64,000 bases of DNA from Chlamydiota bacterium (lineage in GTDB: Bacteria > Chlamydiota > Chlamydiia > Chlamydiales > JAAZZY01): positions 33,183 through 97,182 of the forward strand of contig JAJACU010000037.1 of NCBI GenBank assembly GCA_022601345.1. Direction: 5' to 3'. Each line of letters opens with the position of its first letter. Positions within the stretch are counted from its first letter, which is position 1. Below are positions 8,175 to 14,315 of this stretch, piece by piece. The notes below the pieces were generated by a model. It was not told where the DNA came from, ran no database searches, and worked only from the letters and a program-made list of their open reading frames with translations. A program made the position numbers and the translations under genes.

Positions 8175-9500
8175 ATGTTGTCAGATGTAAGTGTTTCAAG
8201 TGTGATTTCAGATTGTAAATCAAAGATAAAAGAAGTTGTAGGTTCGCAATCATTTCAAGTGAGCTTAGGAGCTGCATCGGCAGTAACAGTCATTTGTGTT
8301 ATCTCTAGCGCTTCTTCAAATCTGAATGATCCTATAAGCCCACAATCTTCGACTAAAGATACTGCACTTAAAGCAGACTGGTATGCGAATCAAACTACAG
8401 AACAAAGTCATGCATTGTTGAACGTTTCTTCATGGAGCTCGAGCTCTTTTTTTGATGAATGTCTAAAGGCGGCAACCCCTACTTCTCAAACTCCAGTTTC
8501 AGATGGTAAAGAACGTGTAAGCCAATTGAATACCTCAAAAGGTAGTTTGAGGTCATTATTCATGGATGCTGTTTTACCTACTTGTCAAAAAGACTCTGAA
8601 GATGCTTATCATAAAGTTGCAAACAATGTGTCTGAAATTTTCTTTTCAAAAAAAGAGGATCTTTTTTGTCCTATAAAAAGCACTTTTTCTAATGTGAGTA
8701 TTGCGCCAATAAAATCAAAAGCTTCTGCTAACGCAACTTTTCAAAAAACAGCTAAAAAACTCACAAAAATGGAGCCCGTGGAAACTTCATATAGCTCTTT
8801 ATACATAAGAGCTACAGGTGCCCTTGTAACTTTAGGAAGTCTCGCTTTTCTTTGCCGGCATCAGGGCGATACTCCTACGGTAGTAGTAACAGGGATTGCT
8901 GCAGGATATACAGCAGCTCAGTCACTGTATCGCAATGTTAAAGGTAGAATAAAATCCTTGTTTGCAAGCGGAGGACAGGCTGCAGCTTCAGCGGCAGAGT
9001 TTGGAAGCCCATCTGCAGATGCTGCAGATTCCGGAGATGAAAGTCACAATGCAGAAATACCTAGCACGCCGGCGCCGGTTGAACAAACACTCAGGAAGGT
9101 GGTAGCAGAACTTACAGGTTCCGAAGATGAAAGTCCCATTGCAGAAATACCTAGCAAGCCGGCTGAACCAACATTTATGGAGCAGATAAGAGAGCTTGCA
9201 GATCAAAGTTTTGATGGTGGAGAATTTGAAGAGTCAACTGTGGGTGTAGTTGATGACCCTCCTGGTACCTTTGATGAATTTGCGCAAGATTTTCGAGGTA
9301 GCATGCCTTCTGCACAAAGTTTAGATGGAGCAGCAGCAGCCCAAGGCGGTTTAAACCAAGCCTTTCGTGCAACAGCAGATCAAGTTGCTAGAGATTTTAA
9401 AACTGCAGAAAAAGGTGTGAAAATAAGTAGACAAGCGGGTAGAAACCTCTTAGATACTTTCAAGCAAATGAAAAGGTTCGTCGATGGTCAGGGGAAATAA
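8175..9500 (+). CDS. Hypothetical protein, Inc-like (paired hydrophobic segments), acidic repeat-containing C-terminus
   Basis: ATGALVTLGSLAFLC-RHQGDTP-TVVVTGIAAGYTAAQSL is a bilobed hydrophobic motif. The N-terminus is similar to the next ORF. Confidence 0.6.
   Translation: MLSDVSVSSVISDCKSKIKEVVGSQSFQVSLGAASAVTVICVISSASSNLNDPISPQSSTKDTALKADWYANQTTEQSHALLNVSSWSSSSFFDECLKAATPTSQTPVSDGKERVSQLNTSKGSLRSLFMDAVLPTCQKDSEDAYHKVANNVSEIFFSKKEDLFCPIKSTFSNVSIAPIKSKASANATFQKTAKKLTKMEPVETSYSSLYIRATGALVTLGSLAFLCRHQGDTPTVVVTGIAAGYTAAQSLYRNVKGRIKSLFASGGQAAASAAEFGSPSADAADSGDESHNAEIPSTPAPVEQTLRKVVAELTGSEDESPIAEIPSKPAEPTFMEQIRELADQSFDGGEFEESTVGVVDDPPGTFDEFAQDFRGSMPSAQSLDGAAAAQGGLNQAFRATADQVARDFKTAEKGVKISRQAGRNLLDTFKQMKRFVDGQGK
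9030..9180. repeat. Tandem ~90-bp duplication inside the CDS
   Basis: tccgGagatgaaagtcAcaAtgcagaaatacctagcaCgccgg (9030-9072) versus tccgAagatgaaagtcCcaTtgcagaaatacctagcaAgccgg (9120-9162). Encodes GDESHNAEIPSTPAP / EDESPIAEIPSKPAEP. Confidence 0.85.
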
Positions 9501-9564: not shown

Positions 9565-10239
9565 ATGTCAGTAGTTTCAATCCAACAACCTAGAGTAGTC
9601 AACTTTTTGCAAACTCTAAATGAGAGTATAAAATCAAAAGCGTTTCAAATTTCTTTTGGAACGACTTTTGCTTTCACAGCAATGCTAATTATCTATCAAT
9701 CTCACGCATGTTTGAACGCTCAGCCTAAAAACCTTAATAATAATGCAGCTTTGCAAAATCCATTACTTGTAAATCAGTTGCCAATTATTGGTTTAGCATC
9801 ACCTGTGAGCGCTGCGTATGATTATTGCATGAGAAATCAAAGTCTAGAATCTAAGAATTTTTCAATTAAGCCTTTAGCTGAAATATCGCCATTTAACCCT
9901 CCACTAGTGGGTGAGATCTTAGCTCATAAATTCGAACAAGCGAGTGCTGAGAAGATTGATCAAAAGATCACAGCTCAGTGTAAAAGACAAGCCTACTACA
10001 GTGCTGATCTACTCCATAAAAAAAATAAGTTCAGTCGGCCGGCAAATTCATCAGCACCTAGGGTTGTCCAAGTTTCTAAAAATGTGTATCCAATCCCCAA
10101 TGCTATTTGGTCTAAGTGGATCTGGAGAGCTGGTGGAGTTGTTGCAGCAGGAGTGTTTACTCAAAAAGTCGTAAAACCTTTTGCGTCATCTGCCATGCTT
10201 TCCTTGGGAAGGCTCATGCTTGATTTGTTTCTCTTTTAG
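9565..10239 (+). CDS. Hypothetical membrane protein, N-terminal paralog of 8175..9500
   Basis: IKSKAFQISFGTTFAFTAMLII aligns with IKEVVGSQSFQVSLGAASAVTVICVI of the upstream ORF. C-terminal hydrophobic tail. Confidence 0.55.
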   Translation: MSVVSIQQPRVVNFLQTLNESIKSKAFQISFGTTFAFTAMLIIYQSHACLNAQPKNLNNNAALQNPLLVNQLPIIGLASPVSAAYDYCMRNQSLESKNFSIKPLAEISPFNPPLVGEILAHKFEQASAEKIDQKITAQCKRQAYYSADLLHKKNKFSRPANSSAPRVVQVSKNVYPIPNAIWSKWIWRAGGVVAAGVFTQKVVKPFASSAMLSLGRLMLDLFLF

Positions 10240-10321
10240 CATTTTCAATTAGGTTGTTTTTTTTGATTTTAGTCTTCTGACAGGCTTTTAAAGGGGCTGT
10301 TTAATCATCAAAAAGACAGTT

Positions 10322-10349
10322 TTCCACACATATTCCCACTATTTCCCAC
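10322..10349 (-). promoter_or_regulatory. Putative distal MraZ operator: three CCAC/CCCAC boxes
   Basis: TTCCAC(AC) 10322-10329, TTCCCAC 10333-10339, TTCCCAC 10343-10349. The last two are exactly 10 bp apart and are the reverse complement of the proximal boxes. Confidence 0.5.
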
Positions 10350-10460
10350 AATTTGTTATTTTTTTTTAATTATATAAACCATTTATTCCAAGTTTTGTAA
10401 GGATTTATTGTGGGTAATTTTACCTGCATTTTTAAAAACAATTTGTTTCTCTCGGTAAAA

Positions 10461-10490
10461 TTGTGGTATACAGTGGGGTATTGTGGGAAA
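10461..10490 (+). promoter_or_regulatory. Putative proximal MraZ operator: three GTGG(G) boxes with 10-bp phasing
   Basis: TTGTGGTATA CAGTGGGGTA TTGTGGGAAA with GTGG starting at 10463, 10473 and 10483. An additional TTGTGGGTAA lies at 10408-10417. Confidence 0.55.
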
Positions 10491-10496
10491 TTAACT

Positions 10497-11009
10497 ATGA
10501 CTCATTTTTTTAGTGGTGCACATACAAGTAAGCTTGATGAGAAAAACCGTTTGGTTTTACCTCATGAGTTGAGATACGGCCTCGTTGAAAACGGGGTAAT
10601 GCAGTTTTCTTTAGCGTTAGGCATGGGAGGTAATCTTTCTATATATCGCAAAAGTGAAATAGATCGACTTATCGAGCAGTTTCAAAAGCTTCAATATGTC
10701 GCCAAGTATCAAAAGTTTCTAACCATCTTCTTTTCAACTCTTTTCCATACAGAATGCGACAAAGTTGGGCGAATAAAACTGCCTGCCATGCTGAAAAAAG
10801 CTGCTCGAATAGATCAAGAGGTGGTTATTGCAGGAGTGATGAATAAAATTGAAATATGGCCACAAGAAGCCTATGAGACTATGTTGACCCAATTTTTAGA
10901 TGGGCAAGATCAAGATTTAGATCTAGCAAAAGTAGCCGAAGAAGCATTTAAAGAACCTGGAAGCAAAAAATCGGATCTTCCACTAATTGGAGGGCAGCAA
11001 ATCTCGTGA
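10497..11009 (+). CDS. mraZ: Transcriptional regulator MraZ
   Basis: MTHFFSGAHTSKLDEKNRLVLP plus the second half-domain DKVGRIKLPAMLKK (duplicated MraZ/SpoVT-AbrB motifs). First gene of the dcw cluster. The track start at 10410 adds 29 non-homologous residues. Confidence 0.85.
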   Translation: MTHFFSGAHTSKLDEKNRLVLPHELRYGLVENGVMQFSLALGMGGNLSIYRKSEIDRLIEQFQKLQYVAKYQKFLTIFFSTLFHTECDKVGRIKLPAMLKKAARIDQEVVIAGVMNKIEIWPQEAYETMLTQFLDGQDQDLDLAKVAEEAFKEPGSKKSDLPLIGGQQIS

Positions 11010-11926
11010 CTGAGCCAGGACATACTCCGGTTTTATTAGATGAGTTTTTGAGTTTTTTTGAAGACTTAAAAATTAAGGTTTTTGTCGATGGAACTTTAGG
11101 AGCTGGAGGTCATAGTTTAGCTATTTTGGAAGCTCACCCTGAGATAGAAAAACTTATTGGCTTTGACCAGGATAGTCAAGCTATTGAGATTGCTAAAAAA
11201 AGACTAAAGCCTTTTGAAAAAAAAGTTGTGATTTTAGAAAAAAATTATTGTGACATGCACGAAGAACTAAAGAAAAAAAATATCTCAAAAGTTGATGGAA
11301 TTTTCCTAGACATAGGAGTTTCTTCAATGCAGCTAGATCAAGCTGAAAGAGGTTTTAGTTTTTCAAAAAATGGTCCACTAGATATGCGTATGGACCGAAA
11401 TTGCTCTCTAACAGCTGCTGAAATTGTCAACACCTGGAGTGAAAAGGATCTAGCAGATATTTTCAGAGAATACGGTGACGTGGCTAAATGGCGTTTTGCT
11501 GCTAAAACGATTGTTCAAGAGCGTAAAAAACACCCTTTTAAAACGACAAAAGATCTAGTTGATCTCCTTTCTCCTTTCTTAAGGAAATCTTCAAAAAAAA
11601 GTATTCACCCTCTTACGCTAGTTTTTCAAGCCTTGCGTATTGCAGTAAATAATGAACTTAAAGTTTTGGGATATACATTGCCTAAAGCCATGCCTTTTTT
11701 GAGACCTGGAGGAAGGCTTGGAGTCATTAGTTTTCATAGTGGAGAAGATCGAATTGTAAAAAACAGTTTCAGGGCTATGAGCAAAAGTCAGCCTCAAATG
11801 GGAAAAGAGTCGCAGAAGCCTTTAGCTTTAATGGTAACAAAAAAGCCCGTAGGACCAACGGATGAAGAGTGTCGGCGCAACCCAAGAGCGCGCAGTGCAA
11901 AAATGAGAGTTTTAGAAAGGATTTAG
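11006..11926 (+). CDS. rsmH: 16S rRNA (cytosine1402-N4)-methyltransferase RsmH (MraW)
   Basis: HTPVLLDEFL, DGTLGAGGHS, DIGVSSMQLD, ISFHSGEDRIVK signatures. GTGA overlap with the mraZ stop. Confidence 0.95.
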   Translation: MTEPGHTPVLLDEFLSFFEDLKIKVFVDGTLGAGGHSLAILEAHPEIEKLIGFDQDSQAIEIAKKRLKPFEKKVVILEKNYCDMHEELKKKNISKVDGIFLDIGVSSMQLDQAERGFSFSKNGPLDMRMDRNCSLTAAEIVNTWSEKDLADIFREYGDVAKWRFAAKTIVQERKKHPFKTTKDLVDLLSPFLRKSSKKSIHPLTLVFQALRIAVNNELKVLGYTLPKAMPFLRPGGRLGVISFHSGEDRIVKNSFRAMSKSQPQMGKESQKPLALMVTKKPVGPTDEECRRNPRARSAKMRVLERI

Positions 11927-11933
11927 GTAGAAT

Positions 11934-12305
11934 ATGGCGCACCTATTTAGAGTATTGATTTGTTTAGTTGTTTTTGGCTTAGGATCATTTCTTTATGTTG
12001 ATCAGCTCAATCAACAAACAGCTTTGCGCTTTCAAATTCCTGCAATAGAAAAAGAGATCGAAGAAATCACTCAACAAAATGTCCAACTTGCTTTTCAGCT
12101 TGAAAATTTCAATAACCCGCAGCATTTACTTGAACTTGCAAAGCAACCCGAGTATAGTCACCTTAAATTTCCATTTATGGAAGAGGTGATGGTCATCTCT
12201 TCTGAGATTGCAAAACGATATGAGTCTACGTCTGAGGAGATAGGGCCTGCAGATCAAAGGTCTTTGGTCAAATGGCCAATCTACTTAGGTAGCAGTAAAA
12301 GATAA
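11934..12305 (+). CDS. FtsL-like small bitopic cell-division protein
   Basis: Single N-terminal TM (LICLVVFGLGSFLYV) followed by a heptad-like region. Sits in the canonical slot between rsmH and ftsI. Call is based on position only. Confidence 0.55.
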   Translation: MAHLFRVLICLVVFGLGSFLYVDQLNQQTALRFQIPAIEKEIEEITQQNVQLAFQLENFNNPQHLLELAKQPEYSHLKFPFMEEVMVISSEIAKRYESTSEEIGPADQRSLVKWPIYLGSSKR

Positions 12306-12314
12306 TTAAACAAT

Positions 12315-14315
12315 ATGAAAGAGTATAAGCGTGTTCTTTGGGTCTCGTGCTCAATTTTTGCTCTATTTTCCCTATTAGTCGTTCAATTTTTTAGAGTGCA
12401 AATTATTCAGGGTGAAAAATGGCAAAAAGTGGCAAGGATGCAGCACCAGCTCATTGTCAAAGAGCCTTTCAAAAGAGGCAAATTTTTTGCAAATACCAGT
12501 CTGCTTCCCGTTACAAAAGATAAGAAACAATCGTTTGTAATTGATATTCCTAAAGTTCACCTCTTTGCTGACCCTTACCAAATTCCACAGAACAAACAAA
12601 CTGAAATAGCCGAAAAACTTAAAGATATTTTAGCTTTAGATATAGGTGATCAACAGCATTTTCTAAAAGAAATGCAACATGAAAAAAGCAGATCAAGAAA
12701 AATGCGTATGTGGGTCTCTTTAGATGAGCGTAATGAAGTCTCTAAATGGTGGTATCCCTATGCAAGAAAAAATAAAATAGCTTCTAATGCTCTTTTTTTC
12801 GTTTCAGATTATAAGCGCTCATACCCCTATGGCCCTTTACTTGGGCAATTACTACATACTATTCAAGAAAATAAAGAAGAGCAAACAAGGCAAGGCCTTC
12901 CAACAGGAGGATTAGAGTATTACTTTAACTCTTTTCTTAAAGGAAAAGAAGGTAAGAAAAAATTGATGCGTTCTCCCAAAAGTTCTTTAGATCAGGGGGT
13001 GATTACCAAAAAGCCTGTTCATGGAGCGGATGTGTATTTAACGATTAACCATCATCTGCAAGCTATAGCTGAAGAAGAAATAGAAAGAGGGGTTAAAGGG
13101 TGTGAGGCTAAGTCAGGTTGGGCTGTGATGATGGACCCGATGACAGGAGAAGTTTTAGCCATGGCTCAGTATCCAAAATTTGACCCAGAGAACTATAAGC
13201 AATACTATCAAAACGAAGACTCTATTGAACACACAAACTTAAAGAGCATCTGCGATAGCTATGAGCCCGGCTCTACTTTTAAACCTATTACAATTGCTAT
13301 TAGCTTGTTGGCTAATGAAGAATTAAAGCGAAAGGGCAAAGACCCACTTTTTGATCCTTGCGAGAAAATTTCTACAAGCTCAGGTCACTTTCCGGGAAGG
13401 AGTAGACCTTTAACAGATCCAAGACACTACCGCTATAATAATCAGTACCTCGCAATGCAAAGGTCAACCAATATCTATTTTGCCAAGCTCGCTGACCGAG
13501 TCAGCAAAGAGTTGGGCTCCGATTGGTATAGAGAGCAATTGTGTAACATTTTTGGTCTCGGCAGCAAAACGGGAATAGAGTATCCATTAGAAAACCCAGG
13601 GTTTGTTCCGCGTCCTGGGATGCAGAATCCTAATGGGACATTAGAATGGTCAGTCCCAACGCCTTACTCATTAGCAATCGGCTATAATTTGATGGTAAAT
13701 AGCCTTCAAATTACACGAATTTACTGCGCATTTGCAAATGGGGGGTATCTTGTGAAGCCTACTTTTGTCAAAAAAATATCTAAGACAGACGAGCAAGGGC
13801 GCGAAGAAATTCTATTTGATAATAAAGAAGAGCAACGCTTAGATCAGTTTAAAAAAATTCTTTCTCCATACATTGCAAGTGAAGTCATGAAATGCCTTAA
13901 ATACTCTGTGCAGTATGTTGGAAGTGGGAATTTGGCTGATGTGTATGGTTACTCAATAGCTGGTAAATCTGGAACGGCAAGAAAGATTGTAAATGGAAAG
14001 TATTCACAAAAAAATTACTTTGCATCTTTTATAGGTATAGCTCCGGTTCAAAAACCACGCTTTGTGTTGTTGGTTTCAATGGATGAACCCAAGCCCACTT
14101 TAAAGCACGGTATTGGCTACATGTATTATGGTGGAAAGTGTGCAGCTCCAGTTTTTAGAGAGATTTCTAGAAGGTCATTAGAGTACTTGGGAGTAGCTCC
14201 TGATAATCCGTTTCATTACCCATTAGGCGACCAAAGGCGCAAGGTTGAAAAAACATTTTGGTTTAAAGAATCGCAAGAGTTAAAAAAACTAAACGAGCAG
14301 TGGAACGGGCAATGA
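12315..14315 (+). CDS. ftsI: Penicillin-binding protein 3 / FtsI-type transpeptidase
   Basis: N-terminal TM. SxxK = STFKP, KTG-type = KSGTA. dcw context. Confidence 0.9.
   Translation: MKEYKRVLWVSCSIFALFSLLVVQFFRVQIIQGEKWQKVARMQHQLIVKEPFKRGKFFANTSLLPVTKDKKQSFVIDIPKVHLFADPYQIPQNKQTEIAEKLKDILALDIGDQQHFLKEMQHEKSRSRKMRMWVSLDERNEVSKWWYPYARKNKIASNALFFVSDYKRSYPYGPLLGQLLHTIQENKEEQTRQGLPTGGLEYYFNSFLKGKEGKKKLMRSPKSSLDQGVITKKPVHGADVYLTINHHLQAIAEEEIERGVKGCEAKSGWAVMMDPMTGEVLAMAQYPKFDPENYKQYYQNEDSIEHTNLKSICDSYEPGSTFKPITIAISLLANEELKRKGKDPLFDPCEKISTSSGHFPGRSRPLTDPRHYRYNNQYLAMQRSTNIYFAKLADRVSKELGSDWYREQLCNIFGLGSKTGIEYPLENPGFVPRPGMQNPNGTLEWSVPTPYSLAIGYNLMVNSLQITRIYCAFANGGYLVKPTFVKKISKTDEQGREEILFDNKEEQRLDQFKKILSPYIASEVMKCLKYSVQYVGSGNLADVYGYSIAGKSGTARKIVNGKYSQKNYFASFIGIAPVQKPRFVLLVSMDEPKPTLKHGIGYMYYGGKCAAPVFREISRRSLEYLGVAPDNPFHYPLGDQRRKVEKTFWFKESQELKKLNEQWNGQ

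Follow-up and report, generated by a model that had tools for sequence, protein, structure and literature searches.

INTRODUCTION

MraZ is among the most widely conserved bacterial regulators, and the operators that have been described for it in Escherichia coli, Bacillus subtilis and Mycoplasma share several features that recur in the locus presented here: GTGG-type boxes, a centre spacing of 10 bp, a location at the head of the dcw cluster, and overlap with the core promoter or the start, which in the present locus is predicted. In E. coli, the boxes GTGGGaaattGTGGGgcaaaGTGGGaat are found in Pmra, immediately before mraZ. The operator of B. subtilis contains three copies of GTGG[A/T]G (bioRxiv 10.1101/2022.02.09.479790), and the MraZ operators of Mollicutes are composed of AAAGTG[T/G] direct repeats (PMC8475190). 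Three boxes are usual in bacteria, four occur in some Mycoplasma, and the mapped transcription start of M. genitalium falls inside a MraZ box (PMC12957436). The protein forms octamers, nonamers or dodecamers (8-12 subunits), and one subunit occupies one box. In the cryo-EM structures of M. genitalium MraZ, 4 of the 8 subunits of an opened octamer are engaged on 4 boxes, and fibres are present that hold more than one DNA segment, indicating that MraZ has spare DNA-binding sites.

Auxiliary operators that cooperate with a promoter operator by DNA looping are known from the lac (O1-O3, 92 bp), gal (OE-OI, ~113 bp) and ara (O2-I1) systems, and from deo with its octameric repressor DeoR. Chlamydiota divide without FtsZ and are genetically hard to study. 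Here, we describe the region upstream of mraZ in a stretch of 64,000 nt from a Chlamydiota bacterium (assembly GCA_022601345.1, contig JAJACU010000037.1, positions 33,183-97,182), referred to below as the window. An earlier note on this DNA had described two opposed triplets of GTGG-type boxes upstream of mraZ and had assigned them to MraZ. The MraZ operators described in the accessible literature consist of one direct array of 3 or 4 boxes, from which the layout differs, as stated in that note. In the Chlamydiota, the direct array is accompanied by an inverted array 95-155 bp upstream, often by direct mid boxes, and the distance between the two arrays is quantised.

RESULTS

The mraZ gene and its presumed operon

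The mraZ gene of the window (10497-11009, plus strand, 170 aa) was identified by its match to PF02381 (E 5.5e-21). It is followed on the same strand by rsmH (PF01795), an ftsL/DivIC-like gene, of which the DivIC match scores under the Pfam cutoff, and an ftsI-like gene, a name that rests on the translation only. These downstream genes (11006-14315) presumably constitute the regulated operon. The GTG start codon of rsmH (11006) overlaps the TGA stop codon of mraZ (11007-11009), which suggests that the two genes may be translationally coupled. In the encoded MraZ, K16, R18 and R92 occupy the alignment positions of K13, R15 and R86, through which M. genitalium MraZ contacts the bases. All three residues are unchanged in 40 chlamydial MraZ sequences. 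The mechanically called open reading frame starts at a GTG further upstream (10410-11009, 199 aa) and reads through the operator, and several MraZ homologues in the databases carry similar N-terminal extensions (177-203 aa). Since the ATG at 10497 is conserved as a start, being invariant in the clade of the window, these extended N-termini are probably the result of mis-called starts.

The gene immediately 5' of mraZ differs between the window and some of its relatives. In the relatives L155 and L163, a SnoaL-like gene adjoins mraZ, whereas in the window this gene (7694-8074, PF07366) is followed by two open reading frames, 8175-9500 and 9565-10239, both without a Pfam match, which therefore look as if they have been inserted in the lineage of the window. 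The N-terminal likeness between these two frames is not significant as evidence of paralogy (E = 0.17).

Phased GTGG-type boxes cluster upstream of mraZ

The gap upstream of mraZ measures 257 bp, is bounded by the end of the unannotated open reading frame at 10239 and the ATG at 10497, and contains seven GTGG-type boxes: three inverted boxes (cores at 10324, 10336 and 10346), one direct mid box (10410), and three direct boxes close to the gene (10463, 10473 and 10483). All motifs and coordinates quoted in the earlier note were confirmed, including the starts of the three proximal boxes and the distance of 7 nt between the last box and the ATG.

The distal array is composed of an outer box 3, TTCCAC (10322-10327), a box 2, TTCCCAC (10333-10339), and an inner box 1, again TTCCCAC (10343-10349), which correspond to GTGGAA and twice GTGGGAA on the minus strand. 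Its helical phasing had been taken to include all three boxes. This is correct for the two TTCCCAC copies, which are 10 bp apart, but the core of the outer box is located 12 bp from that of its neighbour (11 bp when heptamer starts are compared). The AT-rich stretch of ~110 bp that had been seen between the arrays is a spacer of 113 bp (10350-10462) with a G+C content of 21%, compared to 37% for the window.

The sequence GTGG-N6-GTGG-N6-GTGG occurs once in the 64-kb window, a count that was equalled in 0 of 100 shuffles. When both strands were searched for GTGG-N6-GTGG, 3 matches were found versus 0.39 expected, and all 3 are situated inside the mraZ gap. The window contains 56 GTGGG pentamers, 5 of which are inside one span of 153 bp. 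The word GTGGGAA itself is not enriched over the window (4 observed versus 4.7 expected), thus the signal lies in the clustering and phasing of the boxes and not in the frequency of the word.

An inverted-repeat search retrieved the two arms as an inverted repeat of 33 nt with 73% complementarity. Within these arms, the inner distal box and the last proximal box are part of a perfectly complementary 12-mer (ATTTCCCACAAT and ATTGTGGGAAAT), in agreement with, and longer than, the complementarity to the distal heptamers that had been reported for GTGGGAA at 10483. An exact 10-mer, ACAATTTGTT, is present twice in the window, at 10348-10357, where it abuts the inner distal box, and at 10438-10447, over the predicted -35 hexamer.

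The proximal array overlaps the predicted mraZ promoter

For comparison, 80 genome loci and 72 metagenome loci were collected on the basis of an MraZ alignment, all but four of them from Chlamydiota, and ten further loci from the clade of the window were added individually. Sequence profiles were based on 112 non-identical loci.

The proximal array of the window consists of box 0, GTGG (10463-10466), box 1, GTGGGG (10473-10478), and box 2, GTGGGAA (10483-10489), all on the plus strand. These boxes, GTGGTATACAGTGGGGTATTGTGGGAA, are near-identical to those of E. coli Pmra, where the operator reads GTGGGAAATTGTGGGGCAAAGTGGGAA. The core GTG(G/T)/TGGG recurs at steps of ~10 bp, the profile of the 112 loci reads GTGGgAaAa.GTGGgAAa, and the array occupies a dcw-type position, upstream of mraZ-rsmH-ftsL-ftsI. 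At least three direct boxes in exact form are present in the window and in its clade. Most other Chlamydiota have 2 exact proximal boxes together with a degenerate GTG/TTG box on the extended -10; at this box 0 position (-10/-11), GTGG was found in 29 of the 112 loci and GTG or TTG in most of the others. Judged by its box form, which fits the published boxes, by its 10-bp phasing and by the identity of the adjacent gene, the proximal array is a canonical MraZ operator, and the attribution to MraZ made in the earlier note holds at this level.

When the profile of the 112 loci was anchored on box 1, we found tT(G/T) at -30 to -28, tG at -9/-8 and TAnnnT at -6 to -1, with T- and A-tracts farther upstream. 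In the window, the first element corresponds to a predicted -35 hexamer, TTGTTT (10443-10448, plus strand), and the other two (tG-n-TAnnnT at -9 to -1) to a predicted extended -10, TGgTATACA (10464-10472, plus strand). In an alignment of 6 close relatives, the TTG of the -35 hexamer and GTGGTATA of the extended -10 are invariant. The mraZ promoter is therefore predicted to be of the sigma-70 type, with an extended -10 that abuts the boxes. A promoter scan of the window chose a different, weak site at 10432-10461. The -35, TGn and -10 elements are conserved in the 112 loci and directly adjoin box 1, which begins immediately 3' of the -10 hexamer. Since the extended -10 is placed at 10464-10472, box 0 overlaps it at the TG, and transcription would start within or just after box 1, at approximately 10478-10481. 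The two triplets had been said to bracket the promoter. There are indeed boxes on both sides, but the predicted promoter does not occupy a central position, as the proximal array extends across it.

The distal inverted array is conserved in the Chlamydiota

Nearly all loci show the same typical layout, with an upstream pair, ttCCCACnnnttCCCAC, and a second pair, GTGGgaaannGTGGgaa, just before the ATG. The earlier note had proposed to look for the dual arrangement upstream of mraZ in other Chlamydiae, and had specified beforehand that lack of conservation would speak against it. This did not occur: an exact CCAC-N6-CCAC at -260 to -90 from the ATG is present in 128 of the 135 Chlamydiota loci with enough upstream sequence. 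Such pairs occur at a background rate of 0.036 per kb and strand in the flanking DNA (607 kb), which corresponds to 0.006 expected per locus. In the few remaining loci one of the boxes carries a single substitution, and a direct GTGG pair was found in this zone in none of the 135 loci. Both arrays co-occur with mraZ in all 135 loci and, according to the profiles, share the 8-nt motif GTGG[G/A]AA[A/T]. The distal inverted array is neither the product of chance nor a quirk of one lineage.

The distal boxes 2 and 1 of the window form the outer and inner half of this phylum-wide inverted pair. The outer box 3 is specific to the clade of the window, where TTTCCACA is invariant in the alignment of 6 close relatives and visible in 9 of 10 further clade members; a third distal box is absent across the phylum outside this clade. 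The description as two inverted triplets is thus valid for the clade of the window, but the core that is conserved throughout the phylum is a pair facing a pair. Conservation within the gap of the window clade is confined to the two arrays and the TTG of the -35 hexamer, while the spacer has kept its length and has diverged in sequence. In many lineages (e.g. L014, L029 and L048), the distal pair is preceded at 5-10 bp by a TGAACA/GTGAACAA-like word, which differs from the GTGG boxes and does not occur at this place in the window.

No CCAC pair was found within 280 bp upstream of E. coli mraZ. In the three non-chlamydial loci L149, L150 and L152, only direct arrays were detected and no inverted array. 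Together with E. coli, these loci make up a small outgroup sample.

The distance between the arrays is quantised

To describe the spacing, we measured a distance D between two points, the first CCAC in the distal pair and the GTGG that comes next after the -10. Among the 112 loci D is multimodal, with values of 95-99, 108-110, 117-123, 126-132, 137-138, 140-147 and 151-155 bp and empty bins in between, which amounts to a ladder of approximately 96, 109, 120, 130, 142 and 153 bp with a best period of ~11.3 bp. The spacers are practically unalignable (65 clusters from 66 loci), and for this reason relatedness was controlled by means of an MraZ+RsmH tree instead of by clustering the spacers. A parsimony collapse to 33 independent origins of spacing class, a number that may be inflated since the underlying neighbour-joining tree is rough, gave nR2 = 10.1 at 11.3 bp, a value reached in 0 of 2000 randomisations under two nulls. 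Cruder collapses resulted in p <= 0.003 with 22 units, and in p values of ~0.01-0.03 when each class was counted once. Steps in D also occur inside single family-level clades (121 to 132 to 144 bp, and 97 to 131 bp), and 12 of the 15 held-out loci, which have one box mismatch, fall on the ladder. The periodicity was R = 0.60 for D, compared to R = 0.45 for the distance between the distal array and the ATG and R = 0.29 for that between the start of the divergent gene described below and the distal array.

For the repression loops of lac, the helical repeat apparent in vivo is at least 11 bp (PMC3001091), and the quantisation of D is what would be expected for sites that are joined by a DNA loop. 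The ~11.3-bp ladder thus lends independent support to the looping idea put forward in the earlier note. Gain or loss of box-sized units could contribute steps of ~10-11 bp without selection on phase. The spacers have an average G+C content of 29%, compared to 43% for the loci. The phasing of AA/TT (A-tracts) in the spacers, with peaks at lags 20 and 30-31, was too weak to count as support for an intrinsic bend of the spacer, and was set aside.

Spacing and mid boxes in the clade of the window

The clade of the window was sampled with 18 loci (59-89% MraZ identity), which have three proximal and usually three distal boxes. D measures 135-139 bp in 16 of them and 129 bp in the other two. The typical value of ~137 bp is off the ladder, between the 130 and 142 classes. 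The argument from phasing thus applies to the phylum, whereas the window supports it only in a weaker form, by a length that is strictly maintained, and this is its main limit with regard to the window itself.

The direct mid box of the window, TTGTGGGTAA (10408-10417, plus strand), is located 64 bp from the inner distal box and 63 bp 5' of proximal box 1, steps that both correspond to six helical turns at 10.5-10.7 bp per turn. A direct mid box at -63/-64 from box 1 is present in 9 of the 18 clade loci. In the spacers of the phylum we counted 46 GTGG versus 4 CCAC. Relative to box 1, the GTGG copies are most frequent at -42, -52 and -63, and they share the helical register of the proximal array, with R = 0.50 for a period of 10.25 bp and a phase close to zero. 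We count the direct mid box as belonging to the operator system. One clade (L018, L030, L032, L033, L085, L094 and L100) has an extra direct pair, GTGGcagttgGTGGgtg, upstream of the -35, at approximately -62 and -52 from box 1. In these loci, proximal box 2 has degenerated to GGTG, while the distal inverted pair is retained with a D of ~131 bp, and it looks as if the array has been shifted upstream.

A terminator-like hairpin with a T-run at 10409-10428, which includes the mid box and also appears in the RNA fold of the region, was rejected as a candidate terminator because it is not conserved in close relatives.

A divergent DUF5399 gene is often found upstream

In 73 of the 112 loci (e.g. 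L007, L008, L019, L028 and L047), the gene directly upstream of mraZ is a divergently oriented DUF5399 gene (~170 aa, Pfam E 2e-29). The N-terminus of the encoded protein resembles M..RTIDNLG..RYAEDQ and the C-terminus ..RRNQYQKG. Its steady pairing with the dcw control region suggests that DUF5399 may be linked to division. The gene was not found near mraZ in the window or in its 18 clade loci. The start of DUF5399 is located at very different distances from the distal boxes (30-317 bp, and beyond), and a conserved DUF5399 promoter was not seen at any fixed offset from these boxes.

DISCUSSION

A proposed operator of two opposed arrays

The proximal half of the control region is an ordinary MraZ operator. 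What sets the region apart is the inverted array farther upstream, together with the mid boxes and the ladder of spacings. In the accessible MraZ literature, including that on Chlamydia, on environmental chlamydiae and on looping, we found no description of these three features. We consider it probable, with considerable room for doubt, that MraZ autoregulates the dcw operon from this region through an operator of two arrays, in which the distal array is an auxiliary operator that cooperates with the proximal array by looping. Once occupied, the proximal array, which overlaps the extended -10 and the predicted start, would obstruct RNA polymerase in the manner of the E. coli, Bacillus and Mycoplasma operators. 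The same 8-nt box in inverted orientation makes up the distal array (10322-10349), which would serve as the auxiliary operator. One MraZ assembly, or two assemblies that touch, could then grip both arrays, with the 113-bp AT-rich spacer looped or wrapped and the direct mid box at 10410 as an additional contact. Such a loop would increase the local occupancy of the promoter by MraZ, and would thereby make autorepression tighter and more cooperative. Binding of MraZ to the boxes, the loop and the repressive sign are all inferred here from the arrangement of the sequence.

The closest analogues of this arrangement are the lac, gal, ara and deo loops, which likewise combine a promoter operator with a second site ~100-150 bp away for one multivalent repressor, have AT-rich DNA in between, and depend on a spacing whose apparent helical repeat is close to 11 bp or exceeds it (PMC3001091). 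They differ from the Chlamydiota region in that their operators are palindromes bound by dimers, which makes their orientation uninformative, whereas the Chlamydiota arrays are polar rows of boxes that are always inverted relative to each other, and are known by comparison alone.

Other readings of the distal array

In most Chlamydiota both arrays are situated between mraZ and DUF5399, and each is direct for the gene that it faces, as in the control regions of divergent gene pairs. The distal array might accordingly be the operator of the DUF5399 gene, unrelated to the mraZ promoter, and a relic in the window. The divergent gene in 73 of the 112 loci and the direct reading of the distal boxes towards it fit this explanation. 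However, the distance from box to DUF5399 start is not fixed and no promoter is found at a constant offset, whereas the distance to the mraZ promoter is quantised. Moreover, unlike in divergent-pair regions, the distal array persists unchanged where DUF5399 is absent: it is invariant in the 18 clade loci of the window, which have no DUF5399 gene in reach, and where a relic would have decayed like the spacer. This ties the distal array to the mraZ promoter and makes an exclusive role for DUF5399 unlikely, while a second role towards this gene may exist in other lineages. Sequence data by themselves do not separate cooperative repression from a different possibility, in which MraZ on the distal array would activate the mraZ promoter or serve as an anti-repressor. 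It might reach RNA polymerase by way of a DNA bend, or draw MraZ away from the proximal boxes. The evidence for a preferred face of the helix applies equally to such a role, and because the proximal boxes are fixed relative to the -10 and -35, phasing to the promoter is indistinguishable from phasing to the proximal array. We nevertheless regard a positive role as unlikely, since polymerase could not be contacted without a loop from a site located ~100-150 bp before the predicted start, and the characterised action of MraZ at its own promoter is repression throughout.

The complementarity of the arms (33 nt, 73%) raises the question of whether they pair, either as a long-range RNA stem that hides the ribosome-binding region in a long leader, or as a DNA cruciform. 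RNA 10316-10496 folds with the arms paired, at z = -3.6 compared to shuffles, but a favourable fold arises by construction from inverted boxes. The conserved predicted promoter is located between the arms, which would place the distal arm outside the transcript predicted for that promoter. Variation at the fifth position is common to all four boxes, with odds ratios of 2.6 and 5.4 for pairing partners versus 9.7 and 4.1 for non-partners, and a loop length quantised at 11.3 bp is not predicted by a stem. A loop of at least 100 nt is also unfavourable for cruciform extrusion, and taken together these points make pairing of the arms very improbable. Rfam returned only a sub-threshold miRNA match, which is meaningless here. 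It is just as improbable that a protein other than MraZ recognises GTGGGAA and binds one or both arrays. The extended motif (GTGGGAAA) does exceed the four bases that are contacted in the Mycoplasma structure, but MraZ operators of four unrelated phyla are recognisable by just this combination of box core, 10-bp phasing and location before mraZ, the arrays always accompany mraZ, and the 64-kb window contains no further box pair.

Possible geometry of a two-array complex

For the preferred reading, an auxiliary operator that cooperates with the proximal array by looping, the inverted orientation is a geometric objection. DNA that passes round a simple Cn ring would need direct boxes, thus inverted arrays would require that two assemblies are joined by a U-turn loop, or that the particle is dihedral. 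We infer that the complex would be either a U-turn linking two rows whose box vectors run parallel, or a dihedral particle whose DNA gyres do so. A more specific model, which is quite unlikely and is offered as speculation, is a spool-like MraZ particle in the Chlamydiota, with two opposite rows or rings on a dyad, around which ~130 bp of promoter DNA would make a single superhelical turn. The inverted arrays would be the entry and exit of this turn, and the mid box would be near the dyad (64 and 63 bp from the two sides in the window). Such a particle would also link expression of the dcw operon to that of the divergent DUF5399 gene, whose product would in that case be an unrecognised division factor in bacteria that lack FtsZ.

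Implications

Opposed arrays that are conserved throughout a phylum at helical distances may offer a handle on why MraZ rings have 8-12 subunits when operators have 3-4 boxes, as the looping reading predicts that the spare MraZ subunits close a DNA loop. The comparison also flags DUF5399 as a gene that is consistently paired with the mraZ control region. For the Chlamydiota themselves, the two-array region is the likely control region of the operon for division and cell wall synthesis.
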